Source: a virus
Lineage: Duplodnaviria > Heunggongvirae > Uroviricota > Caudoviricetes
Virus record (IMG/VR): IMGVR_UViG_2778261630_000006
Location: 1-39,415 of that record
Strand: one strand, 5' to 3'
Length of the DNA: 39,415 nt
Below are positions 25,291 through 32,044 of the stretch, piece after piece (the first letter of the stretch is position 1; each line of letters starts with the position of its first letter). The position numbers and the translations under genes are program-made. The notes below the pieces were generated by a model that did no database searches, was not told the DNA's origin, and saw nothing but the letters and a program-made list of their open reading frames with translations.

Positions 25291-25814
25291 GCCGCCCTCC
25301 TGACGCCCTGCCCGATCGCCATCAATGCCGCTTTGGATACGGTAGTAAACATCCGTCGAGGACTGATGAACGGTCGCCAAATCAGCAGCATGGAGCCTTT
25401 GCTGTTTCCCTTCTTCTCCAGCCCTGTCGATGGTTCGATAAAATTAATCCGTCCATCAGTGATGATGCGAACTTCGTCAATACTCTCCAGAGCCTTGCTG
25501 AACCATCCGACAGACATATCCTCTGGCACAAGCATCACTACCGTCTGTCGCTGTTGTATGCACTGCTCAGCGGCTTTTTCCACCCACGGCCTGATATTGC
25601 TGTACGGTGGGTTATTCCAGATTGCACCGTGGCTTATCCACTCAGAATTGAGTGCGTCGTCGGCCTCAGTTAGCCAGTGAGCGCACAGAGCATTTTTGTC
25701 GCTCGCAGCTGAATCCAGCCAGAATCCAAACTCAATATCCAGCGCATCAAAAAGCCAAAGCGGCGTTTGCCAGCAGTCCTTGTCGTGTGCTGGCGTATTT
25801 GATTTGATAGTCAT
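25287..25814 (-). CDS. Phage-type DNA N6-adenine methyltransferase
   Basis: NPPY motif (IWNNPPYSN), about 175 aa, ATGA-coupled to ninB and ninE. Confidence 0.8.
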
Positions 25815-26251
25815 GCAGCCCGATCTCCCCATCGCGCTTTCCACTCCAGAGCCAGTCGCGCTTCGTCTGACCACTTAACGCCACGCTCTGTACCGAATGC
25901 CTGTATAAGCTCTAATAGCTCCGCAAATTCGCTTACACGCATTCTGCTGGTTGACTGGCCTATTACCACAAAGCCATTCCCGGCAAGGTTAGGAACAACG
26001 TCCTGCTGCTTTAATGCTGCTGTAAAAACGCACTTCCAGCTTTCTGCATCCAGCCAGCGACCATGCCATTCAACCTGACGAGAGACGTCACCAAGGCAAG
26101 CCCAAAGCTTTCGATTCTGGTCTAAGCTGCGGTTGCGTTCCTGAATGGTTACTACGATTGGTTTGGTTGGGTCTGGAAGAATTTGCTGTACCGCGTGAAT
26201 AGCGTTTTGCTGATGTGCTGGAGATCGAATTTCAAAGGTTAGTTTTTTCAT
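25811..26251 (-). CDS. ninB: NinB (recombination mediator)
   Basis: MKKLTFEIRSPAHQQNAIHAVQQILPDPTKPIVVTIQERNRSLDQNRKLW matches lambda NinB. Confidence 0.9.
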   Translation of the reverse strand: MKKLTFEIRSPAHQQNAIHAVQQILPDPTKPIVVTIQERNRSLDQNRKLWACLGDVSRQVEWHGRWLDAESWKCVFTAALKQQDVVPNLAGNGFVVIGQSTSRMRVSEFAELLELIQAFGTERGVKWSDEARLALEWKARWGDRAA

Positions 26252-26269
26252 GACTTCCCTCTCCCCCAA

Positions 26270-26299
26270 ATAAAAAGGCCTGCGATTACCAGCAGGCCT
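26270..26299 (-). terminator. Rho-independent terminator between replication genes and nin region
   Basis: AGGCCTGC-loop-GCAGGCCT 8-bp stem followed by UUUUUAUUU on the minus strand. Confidence 0.65.
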
Positions 26300-26328
26300 G
26301 TTATTAGCTCAGTGATGTAGATGGTCAT

Positions 26329-28209
26329 TTAATACTCCGTCACGTTTTCCTGTCGCCACGCCTCGTCATATTCCGATTTCGGCATATTGGCGATGTAGCT
26401 ATATGGCGATCCTGATTCAAGTTGCAGGAACTGGTGCGATTGTTCGTCAAGGAACAACGGGACACCACCTTCCCAACCTTCGCCGTTACGTTGTTTTTCA
26501 AGCATCAAAACAGATGCCGGAGATGCCAGTAGCTGTTCGTCCTTCTCTGACATCTTTTCACCACTCTGAACTCTCTGTAACGCTCTCTCGCGAGCCTTGT
26601 TACGCCAGATGATGAAAAGGTTGTCTGTCAGGTCTGTTATCGCTCCAGAGCCTTTTACGTCCATTTTCCCGGTTGGTTTTTCTTCGCTGTCTCCTTTTCG
26701 CGAGTGAGTAACGAGAATGACGTGGGAGTTTGTTTTGTTTTTGAAGTCGCAAATCGAGTCAACAAACGCCTTCTGCCCGTTATAGTCATCGTCGCCTATG
26801 CCACATTTCATCAGGCTGTCGATGATGAATAACTGGATCCCGTATCGGCGGCGAGCGTAGTCGAATATTTCGATCAGCCTGTCGGCTTTCGCCGTTCCGG
26901 TCAGGCCAAACACCCAAAGTCTTTCGTCATAAAATTTAAATGCAGAGTCAATTTCCAGCACTGGCGGCATCTTGCAGCACGTCGCCTGACGGGTAAGGCG
27001 CTTAAGGAGAATACCAGGCTTCAGCTCAAGTGACGCGATGCACGTCTTCACACCCTGACGCATTGCCTCAAGTGCCATATGCCCGACAACCTCCGTTTTT
27101 CCGTGACCGTTCACACCATTGACCAGCGTCAACTCTGCCTCACGGAACTGGAATTTATCTGCCAGAGATTCCCACGGTGGATTAAACAGATACTGCTGCT
27201 TGCCGTAGAAAGCGTTGATAGTGTCCTGGTAAAACTCTCGCGCACTGTAGAGTTCTTCAGGATCGAAGTAGGATGCCGTGCCGATGTACTGCCAGATTTC
27301 ATCCTCGGTAACACCGTTCATCAGGCATTCGTTGATGTCTTTGTACGGCAGAGTAACAAGACGGCAACGATGTTCACCGAGTCGGCTTGCGATTTCCCTT
27401 GCGGCTTCACGACCAACATCATCAACATCCATCGAGATGAATATTTCCTCAAACCTGTCGAGGTTGTGATACTCAAACTCAATCCACTGTTGCTTAGCGC
27501 CTTTCCCGCCACCAAACGGCACGGATAACGCCGAGATGCCGTATTGCGCATAGCTCATACAATCAATTTCGCCTTCGCAAAGTACAACCGCCCTCACGCC
27601 AGCGTCCAGAGCCTGCCATCCGAACAGACAAGGTTCGCAATCACCTTCTGCCATAATGACTTTCTTCCCGTCCGGGCGCTCAGTGCTGATTCGCTTGACC
27701 TGCAACAACTCACCATCGCGTTTGTACGGAATCACCAGAGCATCCAGTTCCCGCTCTCCATTCCACACCTTGCCGCTGACAACCTCGTAGCGCTTTACGA
27801 TTTCTGGCGATATGCCACGCGATTGCAGGTACTCAAGATGGGATTCTGTTCTGGTAACGTAGCGGGCGATTTTCTTGCGATCAGGTCTGGAGAATTTCTT
27901 CTCACGTTTGGCATCGAAATGGTGATCGTCATCCTTGATACCGAGAAATGCTTTCGCTTCCTGCATAGCCTGATGCAGGTTAATTCCTCGACATGCCATC
28001 CACAAATCAAGCATGTCACCGCCGTCTCCCTCAGCGAAATCAGCCCATTTTTTCTTGCCGCTAAGGTTGACCTTAAGGCTGTTTCCCTTGTCACCGTTAA
28101 CGTTACCGGCAACCCACTCATGCCCCTCTTTCTTGCCGTTTGGCAACAGGTGCGGAGCCACCCTGTCAACCTGCGCCCAAAGCAGGTCGCTGAGTTCACT
28201 TGGCGTCAT
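26329..28209 (-). CDS. Primase/helicase (TOPRIM domain plus DnaB-like ATPase)
   Basis: Toprim acidic cluster (LCEGEIDCMS), Walker A GVNGHGKTE, Walker B LFIIDSLMK. Confidence 0.8.
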   Translation of the reverse strand: MTPSELSDLLWAQVDRVAPHLLPNGKKEGHEWVAGNVNGDKGNSLKVNLSGKKKWADFAEGDGGDMLDLWMACRGINLHQAMQEAKAFLGIKDDDHHFDAKREKKFSRPDRKKIARYVTRTESHLEYLQSRGISPEIVKRYEVVSGKVWNGERELDALVIPYKRDGELLQVKRISTERPDGKKVIMAEGDCEPCLFGWQALDAGVRAVVLCEGEIDCMSYAQYGISALSVPFGGGKGAKQQWIEFEYHNLDRFEEIFISMDVDDVGREAAREIASRLGEHRCRLVTLPYKDINECLMNGVTEDEIWQYIGTASYFDPEELYSAREFYQDTINAFYGKQQYLFNPPWESLADKFQFREAELTLVNGVNGHGKTEVVGHMALEAMRQGVKTCIASLELKPGILLKRLTRQATCCKMPPVLEIDSAFKFYDERLWVFGLTGTAKADRLIEIFDYARRRYGIQLFIIDSLMKCGIGDDDYNGQKAFVDSICDFKNKTNSHVILVTHSRKGDSEEKPTGKMDVKGSGAITDLTDNLFIIWRNKARERALQRVQSGEKMSEKDEQLLASPASVLMLEKQRNGEGWEGGVPLFLDEQSHQFLQLESGSPYSYIANMPKSEYDEAWRQENVTEY

Positions 28210-28316
28210 GATTCCCTCAGATTGAGATTTTTAAACCAGAAATCGACAAACGAAATACTTAACCAGCCGTGGTTATAACCAGCGACCAGTAGCGATTTGA
28301 TTTTTGATTTCATGGT

Positions 28317-29177
28317 TCACCTGTCGAAAAACACGTAGCCAGTTTTCGATACGGTGATTGCAGATGATGGTTTGGATTGTGGTTGAATAGTTTCTGGCTT
28401 CTCGTCGTTCCAGCGTTGACCGTTCAGGTAGCTCGATGGTAACAACCTGTCGAATCCGAACTGCTTACCATTCCTGCATGCGATGTCTTCTGCCAGCATC
28501 GTGGCAAACTCGCTTGCCGTACCCATGGTAGTTTTACGCCATTCCCTGAACTGTGTTCTGAATGCCGAAGCTGCGTTTTTCTTCCCGGCTTTCCGCATGC
28601 CTGCACACCAGAATATTTCCTCGAATGCCTTGTCGGTTTCTTCGTGACGGTCAGGTGATTTTTCACACTCCGTCCGAACACTTTCGGACATAGTGTTTTT
28701 ATTATTTCTTTTTTCTTTTGTAATAGTTTCTTTTGTGTGTCCCTGTTTTGGTGACAGCGCTGTCACCGTTTTGGTGACACTTTTTGTCACCAATGCAGTG
28801 ACATTATCACCAGAGTAGTGACACCCTTCGATTTGCCATTCTTCGATGTTCTTGTTAGGACCGATTTGCTGGCCTTCGCGAAGGATAACCTTCATCGCGA
28901 TAAGCTCATTCTTGGCCTTGTTTACCTTCTGTCTTGGCAGCCTGGTAATTTGAGCTAACTGACTATCAGAGATGCGATCCATCTTTTTACCGTAGCCGTA
29001 TGTTTTACGGCATATAGCGTGGGCAACCTTGCTCTGATTTTTCGTTAAATCTGCGCCGATAAGCTCTTCATACAGGGCATTTGCAAGACGGGTATAACCA
29101 TCTTCAACTTCTGCCACACGACGCTCCACAGGCCGTTGTGAAGGCCTTAAATGTGTTACGGTTGCAAGATTACTCAT
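28317..29177 (-). CDS. Replication initiator (lambda O-like N-terminal domain)
   Basis: N-terminal [14 protein letters not shown]...[33 protein letters not shown] resembles lambda O; iterons lie inside the linker. Confidence 0.8.
28690..28830. repeat. Candidate origin of replication: four dyad iterons plus adjacent AT-rich tract, inside the initiator gene
   Basis: GGTGACAGCGCTGTCACC, GGTGACAC-TTTTTGTCACC, AGTGACATTATCACC and AGTGACACC spaced about 20-24 bp apart (28750-28826), then an AT-rich tract (28690-28740). Confidence 0.6.
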
Positions 29178-29316
29178 GACCTTTCTCCTTCTGCATCAGC
29201 TTCACTTTTTCCAACTCAGCCCGGAATCGACCAGGCTGCTTGAAGCTGGACAGGAAGCGATCACGTAGTATGTGTTTGTGAATTTTGTCCTGGTAAGGAC
29301 TGAGTTGTTTTGTCAT
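29170..29316 (-). CDS. Small ORF (48 aa) between cII and the initiator
   Basis: AGGAG ribosome-binding site 7 nt before ATG (29314-29316); stop overlaps the initiator start. Possibly the P22 orf48 equivalent. Confidence 0.5.
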
Positions 29317-29348
29317 AATTACTCCTGTTGATAGATCCAGTAATGACC

Positions 29349-29642
29349 TCAGAACTCCATCTGGATTTGATCAGAACGCTCGGTTGCCGCCGGGCGTTTT
29401 TTATTGGTGAGAATCGAAGCAACTTGTCGTGCCAATCGAGCCATGTCGTCGTCAACGACGCCCCATTCAAGAACAGCAAGCAGCATTGAGAACTTTGGAA
29501 TCCAGTCCCTCTTCCACCTGCTGATCTGCGACTTATCAACTCCCACAGCTTCCGCTGTCTTCTCAGTTCCAAGCATTGCGATTTTGTTAAGCAACGCACT
29601 CTCGATTCGTAGAGCCTCGTTGCGTTTGTTTGCACGAACCAT
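29349..29642 (-). CDS. cII: Transcription activator CII
   Basis: [75 protein letters not shown]... matches lambda CII. Confidence 0.95.
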
Positions 29643-29721
29643 ATGTAAGTATTTCCTTAGATAACAATTGATTGAATGTATGCAAATAAATGCATACACC
29701 ATAGGTGTGGTTTAATTTGAT

Positions 29722-29753
29722 GCCCTTTTTCAGGGCTGGGATGTGTAAGAGCT
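29722..29753 (-). promoter_or_regulatory. nutR (boxA and boxB) in the cro-cII interval
   Basis: Minus strand GCTCTTACACA ... GCCCTGAAAAAGGGC, the lambda nutR arrangement. Confidence 0.7.
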
Positions 29754-29761
29754 GGAATGTC

Positions 29762-29977
29762 TTAAGCGGCTTTGTGTTCCGGCGGGAACACGTCATCAAG
29801 ACTGACTTTTGCGCCTAACTTGTTTAGGCACTCAACAAGAGCACGGCATGTTTTAAGGTCTGGGAAGCGACGACCAGATTCCCAATGTCCGATAGCTCCC
29901 TGTGTGCATCCAACTGCCTTAGCAAGTGTTGTTTGAGAGATATTCAGTGACTCTCGATATTTTCGTAGGTTGCTCAT
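29762..29977 (-). CDS. cro: Cro-type repressor (HTH), non-lambda specificity
   Basis: 71 aa; HTH QTTLAKAVGCTQGAIGHWESGRR. Divergent from cI across the operator region. Confidence 0.8.
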   Translation of the reverse strand: MSNLRKYRESLNISQTTLAKAVGCTQGAIGHWESGRRFPDLKTCRALVECLNKLGAKVSLDDVFPPEHKAA

Positions 29978-30094
29978 ATGCCCTCCATAGTAACCATGAA
30001 ACAATAATACGATATGTACTTTTAGAATGCAAACAAAAAATACATCTTGTGCATGGATGGTTTTAGTACAGAGCGTAATAATAAGGGTATGAAA
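29978..30094. promoter_or_regulatory. Right operator region with divergent PR and PRM
   Basis: Three related 15-bp dyad sites (30006-30020, 30039-30053, 30065-79), consensus A(G/A)TACA-N3-(C/T)GT. Minus-strand PR candidate TTGCAT-17-TATTAT (30004-30032) overlaps site one. Confidence 0.55.
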
Positions 30095-30748
30095 ATGAAA
30101 TGGTATGAACTGGCTAGATCCAGAATGAAAGAGCTCGGCATAACTCAAGAGAAGTTAGCTGAAGAGCTTGGTATGACGCAGGGTGGAATTGGTCACTGGT
30201 TGCGCGGATCTCGTCATCCATCTCTTGACGAGATTGGTGTGGTGTTTAAATACCTTGGTATTGATAACGTCTCATTCAACCACGACGGTACATTTTCACC
30301 TGTTGGCGAATACTCATCTGCCCCCGTTAAAAAACAATATGAGTACCCTGTTTTTTCTCATGTTCAGGCCGGGATGTTCTCGCCTGAGCTTAGAACCTTT
30401 ACCAAAGGTGATGCGGAGAGATGGGTCAGCACAACCAAAAAAGCCAGTGATTGTGCGTTCTGGCTTGAAGTTGAAGGTAATTCCATGACCGCGCCAACAG
30501 GATCCAAGCCAAGCTTTCCTGACGGGATGTTAATTCTCGTTGACCCTGAGCAGGCTGTTGAGCCAGGTGATTTCTGCATAGCCAGACTTGGTGGTGACGA
30601 GTTTACCTTCAAGAAACTGATCAGGGATAGCGGTCAGGTGTTCCTACAGCCACTAAACCCGCAATATCCAATGATTCCATGCAATGATAGCTGTTCCGTA
30701 GTAGGGAAAGTTATCGCCAGCCAGTGGCCTGAAGAGACATTTAGTTAA
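30095..30748 (+). CDS. cI: CI repressor: novel HTH N-domain fused to a lambda-type C-terminal (S24/LexA-like) domain
   Basis: C-terminal half from [21 protein letters not shown] onward matches lambda CI including the SMTAPTGSK...DGM cleavage region; N-terminal 80 aa differ. Start 30095 (AAGGG ribosome-binding site) or 30089. Confidence 0.85.
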
Positions 30749-30778
30749 CAGCCTCACCACTCTAAAACACACAACAAT

Positions 30779-30808
30779 AACCCGACCTTAGCGTCGGGTT
30801 TTCTTTTT
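30779..30808 (+). terminator. Rho-independent terminator after cI
   Basis: AACCCGAC-CTTAGC-GTCGGGTT hairpin followed by TTCTTTTT. Confidence 0.7.
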
Positions 30809-30827
30809 CCAAAATATAAACCCATTA

Positions 30828-30903
30828 AATACAAAGTGTTATAAAAAACCAATTATATTTAGAACATTTTGTATTGACTCGATAAAGTACAAATCGTACT
30901 ATT
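30828..30903. promoter_or_regulatory. Left operator and pL
   Basis: Plus-strand TTGACT (30874-79), 17-bp spacer, TACTAT (30897-30902). Dyad AGTACAAATCGTACT (30886-30900) overlaps the -10; related site at 30828-30842. Confidence 0.55.
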
Positions 30904-30942
30904 TAGCCATCAGCAGGACGCACTGACCACCATGAAGGTGAC

Positions 30943-30972
30943 GCTCTTAAAAATTAAGCCCTGAAGAAGGGC
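30943..30972 (+). promoter_or_regulatory. nutL (boxA and boxB)
   Basis: CGCTCTTAAAAATTAAGCCCTGAAGAAGGGC, the lambda nutL arrangement. Confidence 0.75.
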
Positions 30973-31082
30973 AGCATTCAAAGCAGAAGGCTTTGAGTAG
31001 CGCGAAATGCAGCTGCAAGACAGCAACCGTGGAGATAAGCATCACGGCGCGTTACTCAAAGCTAACTGACAGGAGAATCCAG

Positions 31083-31409
31083 ATGGATGCACAAACACGC
31101 CGCCGCGAACGTCGCGCAGAGAAACAGGCTCAATGGAAAGCAGCAAATCCCCTGTTGGTTGGGGTAAGCGCAAAACCAGTTAACCGCCCTATTCTCTCGC
31201 TGAATCGCAAACCGAAATCACGAGTAGAAAGCGCACTGAATCCGATAGACCTTACGGTGCTGGCTGAATACCACGAACAGATTGAAAGCAACCTGCAACG
31301 TATTGAGCGCAAGAATCAGCGCACATGGTACAGCAAGCCACGCAGTGAAATGGGCGTGACTTGTGTTGGTCGCCAGAAAATGAAATTAGGCAGCAAACCA
31401 CTTATTTGA
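31083..31409 (+). CDS. N: Antiterminator N
   Basis: MDAQTRRRERRAEKQAQWKAANPLLVGVSAKPVNRPILSLNRKPKSRVESALNPIDLTVLAEYH... matches lambda N (Arg-rich motif). Confidence 0.95.
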   Translation: MDAQTRRRERRAEKQAQWKAANPLLVGVSAKPVNRPILSLNRKPKSRVESALNPIDLTVLAEYHEQIESNLQRIERKNQRTWYSKPRSEMGVTCVGRQKMKLGSKPLI

Positions 31410-31420
31410 GAGGAATTAAT

Positions 31421-32044
31421 ATGTCATCAATCCGCTTAACAACGAGTATGAAAGAGAAAATCGCTCGTAACGCTTTAATTAAATCTGGGGTTTTCACTGA
31501 GCTTGAAGAAGTAACAAAGTTAAAGAACCAGCTTGCACTTGACGCCAGAGTTGTTGTGTTTGGCGGTAAAAAGAAAACTGAGGAAGTGGATCAGTTATCA
31601 TCCAAGTTAATGGCTATAAGCGAAGAACTTGAAAAGCTGGGATGTTCATTTTACTCATGCGATGCCCGTTCAACTTCAATTTATCTGACTGTATCTGGCA
31701 GAAGGGTTGGCTGGTATTCATATGGGAAAGACGGCAACGGCGAAGATATATTGCTCCCTACTCCGACCAAAGATAAATGCATGTTTAGCGCAGAACACGA
31801 AATAACAAAAAGGTTTGATGAAATCTGCGCATTGCAACAAAAACTTGAAGCCAAGAAAAAGGATATCGAATCAAATGTATGGGCTGCTTTGAACTCAGTC
31901 ACAACAGTTAAGCGACTTATTGAAGTTTGGCCTGAAAGCAAAGAGTTGCTACCAAAAGAAGCAGATAAAGCAAGTACAGCACTTCCTGCTTTACGGGTAG
32001 AAGATTTGAATAAGATGATTGGACTTCCTTCCGAGGTCGCATAA
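31421..32044 (+). CDS. Hypothetical protein (207 aa) immediately downstream of N; AT-rich accessory gene
   Basis: GAGAGGA ribosome-binding site and ATG 12 nt after the N stop. No family recognised. Confidence 0.6.
   Translation: MSSIRLTTSMKEKIARNALIKSGVFTELEEVTKLKNQLALDARVVVFGGKKKTEEVDQLSSKLMAISEELEKLGCSFYSCDARSTSIYLTVSGRRVGWYSYGKDGNGEDILLPTPTKDKCMFSAEHEITKRFDEICALQQKLEAKKKDIESNVWAALNSVTTVKRLIEVWPESKELLPKEADKASTALPALRVEDLNKMIGLPSEVA

Follow-up and report, generated by a model that had tools for sequence, protein, structure and literature searches.

The O-like initiator gene of the phage DNA described here very probably contains a theta-replication origin of the ori-lambda type, at which the initiator and the phage's own primase-helicase would act by the mechanism proposed below. 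Four 19-bp dyads of the form TGTCAC-N7-GTGACA are located inside the gene (span 28738-28823). The origin is an ordinary one of the ori-lambda type with a non-lambda iteron specificity, and the module to which it belongs is already present in published genomes. Sequence comparisons established how it is built, that it is homologous to ori-lambda, that the half-sites are under selection at the DNA level and that the protein domains are linked in a modular way.

The window, i.e. the whole 39.4-kb stretch of DNA that was analysed, derives from a lambdoid phage, or prophage of E. coli, that is P22-like (Lederbergvirus-type), and its structural half is approximately 96 % identical to the phages HZ41, APC_JM3.2 and IME10. 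The early-right operon is on the minus strand, and the gene order is cI, a Cro-like HTH gene, cII, the O-like initiator, a 35-aa ORF, the primase-helicase and ninB (Table 1). Between O and ninB there are only the 35-aa ORF, which is homologous to ES18 gp60 and epsilon34 gp51, and the primase-helicase. The pR-like candidate between cI and cro might possibly be the driver of cro, cII, O and the primase-helicase, in which case transcription would traverse the origin.

Table 1 Features of the probable origin and of the early-right region, with positions in the window
Feature	Position	Strand	Basis
Iteron 1 (ITN1 equivalent)	28805..28823	-	Aligned with lambda ITN1
Iteron 2	28785..28803	-	Dyad search, pattern scan, alignment to lambda
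Iteron 3, perfect dyad	28761..28779	-	Dyad search, pattern scan, alignment to lambda
Iteron 4, adjoins AT tract	28738..28756	-	Dyad search, pattern scan, alignment to lambda
AT-rich tract, 41 bp, presumed DNA-unwinding element	28697..28737	.	G+C 0.17, low stability, alignment to lambda
Inverted repeat beyond AT tract	28665..28696	.	Dyad search; pairing across relatives
O-like replication initiator, 286 aa	28317..29177	-	ORF list; PF04492, TIGR01610, PHROG 33384
35-aa ORF between initiator and primase-helicase	28206..28313	-	PHROG 21848, E = 4e-26
Primase-helicase, single polypeptide, 626 aa	26329..28209	-	Pfam, PDB and PHROG matches
ninB	25811-26269	-	Gene list and domain search
cII	29349-29702	-	Gene list and domain search
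cI	30047-30748	+	Gene list and domain search
pR-like promoter candidate between cI and cro	30004..30033	-	Consensus scan only, 9/12 matches

Architecture of the probable origin and likeness to ori-lambda

Read 5' to 3' on the gene strand, the array has the order TGTCACTACTCTGGTGATA A TGTCACTGCATTGGTGACA AAAAG TGTCACCAAAACGGTGACA GCGC TGTCACCAAAACAGGGACA CACAAAAGAAACTATTACAAAAGAAAAAAGAAATAATAAAAACACTAT GTCCGAAAGTGTTCGGAC. Compared to the pattern TGTCACC-N5-GGTGACA, iterons 1, 2, 3 and 4 have 2, 1, 0 and 2 mismatches, respectively. The distal half-site of iteron 4 is degenerate, as is that of lambda ITN4. No further site with at most two mismatches to this pattern was found in the 39.4-kb window. 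When up to three mismatches were allowed, the window contained 6 matches compared to 1.32 expected, a number reached by none of 100 shuffles, and the heptamer GGTGACA was present in 10 copies compared to 4.3 expected, four of them inside 42 bp at the array. Clustering so far above chance means that the array is a correct observation and not an accident. Isolated copies of GGTGACA at 28014 and 28089, in the primase-helicase gene, were considered and set aside, there being no enrichment outside the origin (6 compared to 4.3 expected). A role of the iterons as repressor operators was also rejected, as the cI-cro region has no site within three mismatches of the iteron pattern.

The G+C content is 0.17-0.22 across 28680-28739, compared to approximately 0.45-0.55 in the flanks, and the AT tract itself is 78 % pyrimidine on the plus strand. 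Its predicted stability is about 3.5 SD below the window mean, and in nearest-neighbour calculations it was the fourth to fifth least stable of the non-overlapping 30-40-bp stretches of the window. The tract is conserved across 17 relatives, with a mean entropy of 0.38 bits. It is not the single least stable site of the window. The inverted repeat that follows has arms at 28665-28678 and 28683-28696 and, on the gene strand, the core GTCCGAA-AGTG-TTCGGAC (28672-28689). Among nine relatives of the same C-domain class 88.9 % of the cells were paired, a value that was not reached in any of 500 shuffles, and two-sided changes were seen at 2 pairs.

The sequence-only reading had placed four spaced GTGACA-containing dyads, followed by an AT-rich tract, at 28690-28830 within the linker of an O-like initiator, in an arrangement like that of lambda ori and with different iterons. 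The dyads are indeed present, as 19-mers with 0-2 mismatches each, and so is the tract, 41 bp at 17 % G+C; they lie in the coding region for aa 119-160, while the N-domain ends at aa 114. The proposed interval spans the iterons and the AT tract and omits most of the inverted repeat.

The likeness to lambda was borne out by alignment. With MAFFT the four repeats aligned one-to-one with lambda ITN1-4, and the start-to-start spacing of the iterons is 20, 24 and 23 bp in both the window and lambda. The iterons start at nucleotides 355, 375, 399 and 422 of the O gene in the window, and at 349, 369, 393 and 416 in lambda as annotated. The AT tract of the window is homologous to the lambda high-AT region (CACAAAAGAaACTATTACAAAAGAAAAAAGAAA...), and in the alignment the lambda tract, CACAAAAGACACTATTACAAAAGAAAAAAGAAAAG, shares sequence with it. 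An inverted repeat with 12-bp arms begins 43 nt past ITN4 in lambda, and the repeat of the window begins 41-48 nt past iteron 4. Given the one-to-one alignment, the identical spacing and the homologous AT tract, the array is, as judged from these comparisons, a positional homologue of ori-lambda and more than an analogue.

Also common to the two systems are the location of the origin in the initiator gene, between the regions for the N- and C-domains, the presence of four hyphenated dyads of 18-19 bp, an AT tract of some 40 bp that lies distal to the promoter and has an inverted repeat after it, the Phage_rep_O N-domain, and the position of the initiator gene, which follows cro and cII in the pR operon. 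The half-sites are TGTCAC/GTGACA in the window as compared to TCCCTC/GAGGGA in lambda. The N-domain is only approximately 52 % identical to the lambda-type N-domain, the C-domain is unrelated to the P-binding domain of lambda, and the window has no P gene and a T7-gp4-like primase-helicase instead. In a tblastn search in which only the best match was recorded, none of the loci of the window's C-domain class had the C-domain of lambda O as that match.

The Phage_rep_O N-domain comprises aa 20-114 of the initiator (PF04492, E = 1.6e-37, 128 bits with a cut-off of 28.7; TIGR01610, phage_O_Nterm, E = 1.7e-30, 105 bits with a cut-off of 45.5). The iterons and the AT tract code for the residues between this domain and the C-terminal domain (aa 157-286), which belongs to PHROG 33384/270 and had no match to any Pfam or NCBIfam family. 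A sequence search of the PDB with O found no relative. The AlphaFold2 model, made from an alignment of 20 sequences, had a mean pLDDT of 51.9, with residues 102-175 below 50. Relatives accept the in-frame gain of iteron-encoded peptide repeats, and indels are allowed in this part of the protein. The low pLDDT and this tolerance fit a flexible linker, and the origin-encoded stretch of approximately aa 115-175 may tentatively be regarded as such; the assignment is as tentative as that of the recognition helix discussed below, since the model is poor.

The partner primase-helicase and the exchange of domains

The 626-aa product of the gene downstream is a single polypeptide of the T7 gp4/Twinkle type, in which a Toprim primase domain is fused to a helicase domain of the SF4 RecA type. 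This agrees with the earlier suggestion that the initiator is paired with a single-polypeptide primase/helicase instead of lambda P with host DnaB or the P22 18/12 pair; the partner is neither lambda P nor a DnaB helicase of the P22 gp12 type. In Pfam it matched Toprim_2 with 47 bits (cut-off 22.1) and AAA_25 with 28 bits (cut-off 27), and it is a member of PHROG 239 (E = 1.5e-171). Its matches in the PDB were T7 gp4 (5ikn, E = 2.7e-23, residues 192-539) and Twinkle (E = 6.5e-14). Neither PF00772 (DnaB N-terminal) nor PF06992 (Phage_lambda_P), both of which were found in comparison loci, had a match in the module, and no gene for a P-like or DnaC-like loader was found there. Direct reading of the first 190 residues showed C73 as the only cysteine, so that the N-terminal Cys4 zinc ribbon is absent, and the weak dnaG-like match at residues 26-143 is without metal ligands. 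Because of the absent zinc ribbon, the primase activity of the protein is uncertain.

Among the viral contigs retrieved with the C-domain of the window, the primase-helicase was immediately downstream in 79 of 80, the one exception being at a contig end, and of the genomic loci for which a partner was found, all seven had the primase-helicase after the C-domain; as the C-domain adjoins the partner gene, this linkage could partly reflect proximity. Lambda-type C-domains track P in the same way, and those of other classes go with DnaB-type helicases or DnaC-like loaders. The C-domain and primase-helicase of the window are joined to three types of N-domain and iteron, namely that of the window, the lambda type (epsilon34) and an HTH_36 type (24B, Min27), and the window-type N-domain and iterons are also joined to lambda P, to DnaB-type helicases (Proteus phage V3, Xenorhabdus, Photorhabdus) and to IstB/DnaC-like loaders (Serratia, Rosenbergiella). 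The breakpoints of homology are inside the origin, at approximately 28701-28705 in the AT tract and at approximately 28750 in iteron 4.

For the whole module, i.e. O, the iterons, the 35-aa ORF and the primase-helicase, the identity is 98.7 % in Sf101, 98.6 % in mEp043, 98.2 % in vB_EcoP-720R6 and 91.3 % in SEN22, and none of these four differs substantially from the module of the window. The origin is not annotated in their records, nor is it discussed in the Sf101 paper. Epsilon34 (gp50-gp52) and ES18 (gp59-gp61) have the same O C-domain, 35-aa ORF and primase-helicase, with approximately 88 % DNA identity up to position 28750 of the window and the same AT tract and inverted repeat. They have their own lambda-type N-domain and TCCCTC-N5-GAGGGA iterons, the mosaic junction being within iteron 4. 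For ES18 the joining of a lambda-type N-domain to this C-domain and primase-helicase has been described, and at the homologous site the epsilon34 record lists a 'putative origin ... gene 50 protein binding' feature (PMC2629481). In the Stx phages 24B and Min27 ('O2/P2') the O C-domain, the region of the 35-aa ORF and the primase-helicase are 97-99 % identical up to position 28701; the N-domain is an unrelated one of the HTH_36 family, the repeats are G+C-rich (GGGGCAGGAGCTGCCCC) and variable in number, and the helicase has a Hint/LAGLIDADG intein (PMC3430580). The converse is seen in PhiR12_1, which has the identical N-domain and iterons (99.4 % down to position 28705) and a lambda-type C-domain with P and Ren. 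Arrays of the TGTCAC type are present in many prophages of Enterobacterales. The module was found in 181 of 5426 complete E. coli genomes (approximately 3 %), and none of the classical laboratory lambdoid phages was among its DNA matches.

It is conceivable, but in our estimation unlikely, that the origin is real and O-dependent while the O C-domain does not load the primase-helicase as replicative helicase, and the latter might serve only as a primase or accessory enzyme, or in a later rolling-circle or recombination-dependent phase, with initiation depending on host DnaB recruited in some other way. The contact between O and the primase-helicase is a predicted one, and the DnaB_C match of the latter was below the curated Pfam cut-off (23.9 compared to 27 bits). 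Some lambdoid phages have an O homologue only and neither a helicase nor a loader gene (PMC12315714), which means that O can work with host factors. However, the T7 gp4 match covers both the primase and the helicase domain and AAA_25 passes its cut-off, the dedicated O C-domain class is tightly co-inherited with the primase-helicase, in the way that lambda-type C-domains go with P, and the module is without a loader gene of its own. Direct loading of the primase-helicase by O is the reading that we prefer.

Half-site conservation and iteron specificity

With the O N-domain alignment as the query and one genome per species, the scan gave 80 loci. Seventeen distinct O genes with TGTCAC-type arrays, those of the window and of Proteus phage vB_BPM-V3 being counted among them, were compared; the hosts of this type include Shimwellia, Pseudescherichia, Citrobacter, Pantoea, Serratia, Rosenbergiella, Xenorhabdus, Photorhabdus, Tatumella, Providencia and Enterobacter. 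All 17 have four copies at identical offsets from the tryptophan codon of the conserved GPNKNxxEW. A few additional relatives have three or five iteron copies. Across the last 300 nt of the N-domain the pairwise identity of the 17 genes is 72 %. The mean entropy at third codon positions was 0.11 bits in the half-sites, whereas the N-domain had 1.18 bits and the iteron centres 0.73 bits (half-sites and N-domain differ with Mann-Whitney p = 4.6e-9). The third positions of the half-sites are thus near-invariant, indicating that the half-sites are conserved as DNA beyond the needs of the protein.

Other O subfamilies have the same array with altered half-sites: GTTACC-N5-GGTAAC in Erwinia phiEt88, Symbiopectobacterium and Yersinia, GTCTCY-N5-RGAGAC in Hafnia Pocitis76, Pantoea, Providencia and Proteus, and TCCCTC-N5-GAGGGA in lambda and epsilon34. 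Between subfamilies all eight half-sites switch in concert and the dyad symmetry is kept. Together with the selection on the half-sites at the DNA level, these concerted and symmetric changes argue for a dimeric initiator as the reader of the half-sites. Among 48 unique N-domains, residues 29, 52, 84, 85, 87 and 90 partition by iteron type, and residues 84-90 are in a helix (82-94) that AlphaFold2 predicted as the second of a helix-turn-helix pair. The co-variation of N-domain residues and iterons appears supportive rather than decisive, since the two are only approximately 100 bp apart and the co-variation is in part shared ancestry.

These data also bear on whether the repeats have a function as DNA at all. 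They are in frame and encode a recurring V-T dipeptide, and linker indels are tolerated among the relatives, so the repeats might be a by-product of a repetitive peptide linker (exemplified by a stretch of 15 residues) or a relic of recombination, with the origin elsewhere. This is very improbable: the third positions of the half-sites hardly vary, whereas those of the N-domain and the iteron centres do, the eight half-sites change together with preserved symmetry, the spacing is identical to that of the experimentally defined lambda iterons, and the half-sites are unchanged where the peptide differs (CHYSGDN compared to CHQNGVI). Least credible of all is that the dyads act at the RNA level, either by forming hairpins in the O transcript or by terminating antisense transcription, and not as protein-binding DNA, for although they would fold as RNA too, and a terminator scan gave two plus-strand sites with a hairpin and T-run within the array as well as a site at the inverted repeat, an Rfam scan of 26000-32000 at gathering thresholds had no match, RNA folding needs neither four copies at the lambda spacing nor co-variation with helix-turn-helix residues, and the homologous sites in lambda are proven O-binding sites (PMC5043065, PMC7466680). 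The terminator-like hits in the array were rejected as by-products of dyads separated by A-runs. We therefore retain the reading of the dyads as initiator-binding iterons.

Proposed initiation and its meaning

By analogy with lambda, derepression would allow transcription from pR and the production of the O-like initiator, whose N-terminal helix-turn-helix dimers would assemble on the four TGTCAC-N7-GTGACA iterons into an O-some-like complex. This complex, negative supercoiling and transcription through the region would together open the 41-bp AT tract. The O C-domain, of a class distinct from that of lambda, would then recruit the T7-gp4-like primase-helicase of the phage onto the opened DNA, where it would unwind and prime, and a host polymerase would elongate. 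Binding by the initiator and unwinding of the AT tract are putative steps, and so are the direct recruitment of the primase-helicase and an initiation that would be independent of host DnaB, DnaC and DnaG. The lambda counterparts of the binding, opening and recruitment steps, including the delivery of DnaB by P, have been described (PMC5043065, PMC7466680, PMC6022878).

In lambda O, recognition of the origin is the task of the N-domain and recognition of the partner that of the C-domain (PMC6022878). This two-domain logic now reaches a fourth kind of partner. Lambda replication needs the chaperones DnaK, DnaJ and GrpE. A wider proposal, towards which we are almost equally drawn and doubtful, with doubt slightly ahead, is that the origin and linker form a universal recombination joint, at which at least four iteron specificities (TGTCAC, GTTACC, GTCTCY, TCCCTC) could be freely combined with four or more systems of helicase delivery (lambda P, DnaB-type helicase, DnaC-like loader, T7-gp4-like primase-helicase). 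According to this proposal, the C-domain would here directly load a zinc-finger-less primase-helicase, initiation would need none of host DnaB, DnaC and DnaG, and perhaps not DnaK/DnaJ/GrpE either, and the specificity would be set by a few residues of the recognition helix (84, 85, 87 and 90) and could be reprogrammed.

Intragenic origins have been an established concept in lambdoid phages from the late 1970s onwards, and the present gain is thus incremental. For lambda, P22 and L, iterons located inside the initiator gene have been discussed (PMC8022706). O homologues have been reported paired with an ES18-type primase-helicase (PMC10307801), a module of O and primase-helicase is on record for ES18-like, STMP and 24B phages (PMC2629481, PMC10307801, PMC3430580), and Toprim and gp4-helicase domains with an intein have been described in the 24B 'P' protein (PMC3430580). 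No description of the TGTCAC-type iteron was found in a literature search by iteron string, and no replication studies of phages with such iterons (Sf101, mEp043, SEN22, 720R6, PhiR12) were found in the literature.

The finding provides an origin annotation for a module that is marked only as 'replication protein' in the records of several named phages that carry it, serotype-converting and Stx-related phages included. The comparative set, with four symmetric half-site variants and candidate determining residues, is a natural experiment on initiator/iteron specificity, and it is informative on the ways in which a single initiator scaffold is connected to four helicase-delivery systems.

Occurrence in E. 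coli genomes and annotation

The origin together with the O N-domain (window 28650-29180) was found at an identity of at least 90 % in 181 of the 5426 complete E. coli genomes, with up to four copies per genome. In the eight E. coli records listed, the RefSeq features lying under this match were named 'replication protein' and 'DUF2740 family protein', and no origin was marked there.

Probably truncated loci and contigs with lambda-like O and P

Two loci, L106 (Providencia alcalifaciens) and L119 (Symbiopectobacterium purcellii), possess normal iteron arrays, while the downstream partner or the C-domain is absent; the O gene of L119 diverges immediately past iteron 3. Both are likely to be decayed prophages truncated at the origin. 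Among the matches from the scan of one genome per species, loci L141-L156, L167 and L168 encode O and P 99-100 % identical to those of lambda, and they are located on contigs that are short or about 48 kb long and of low coverage. The assemblies are assigned to Bradyrhizobium, Ruminococcus, Paenibacillus, Leeuwenhoekiella, Neobacillus, Oceanobacillus, Pseudomonas, Shewanella and others, and these loci are almost certainly lambda DNA contamination.

Features adjacent to the initiator gene

A conserved 35-aa ORF co-travels with the module formed by the O C-domain and the primase-helicase. Opposite the 3' end of cII, in antisense orientation, there is a strong hairpin followed by a T-run. It resembles the terminator of the lambda OOP antisense RNA; no Rfam match was obtained for it.

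Features around the initiator gene (window positions)
Feature	Position	Strand	Remarks
Primase-helicase	26329-28209	-	
Conserved 35-aa ORF	28206-28313	-	PHROG 21848; homologue of ES18 gp60 and epsilon34 gp51
Hairpin + T-run	29373-29400	+	AGAACGCTCGGTTGCCGCCGGGCGTTTTTTATT; inside cII
cII	29349-29702	-	

The N-terminus of the primase-helicase (residues ~25-75) is spaced like a DnaG-type zinc finger (...GHEWVAG...WADFAEGDGGDMLDLW), and a weak dnaG match covers aa 26-143. The Cys/His ligands are lacking from this zinc-finger-like N-terminus, as they are from that of metazoan Twinkle. Gene 'P' of Stx phage 24B (L002:2505-5411) is a homologue of the same primase-helicase, but it is split in the helicase domain by a Hint + LAGLIDADG intein of ~330 aa, already published (PMC3430580), whereas the window protein has no intein.

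Iteron copy number in related initiators

In the 24B-type (HTH_36) initiators, which share the C-domain of the window protein, the copy number of the putative iterons varies in frame: the G+C-rich repeat GGGGCAGGAGCTGCCCC, encoding the peptide GGAGAA, is present in 1, 3 or 6 copies in the O genes of L061, L002 (24B) and L088. Two lambda-type O homologues with the window's C-domain, P0041 and P0049, contain additional in-frame peptide repeats at the iteron-encoded position (8 extra aa, TSLKTGDK, and 13 extra aa), which implies that their genes would carry five or more iterons, much like the six reported for Stx phages (PMC7466680).
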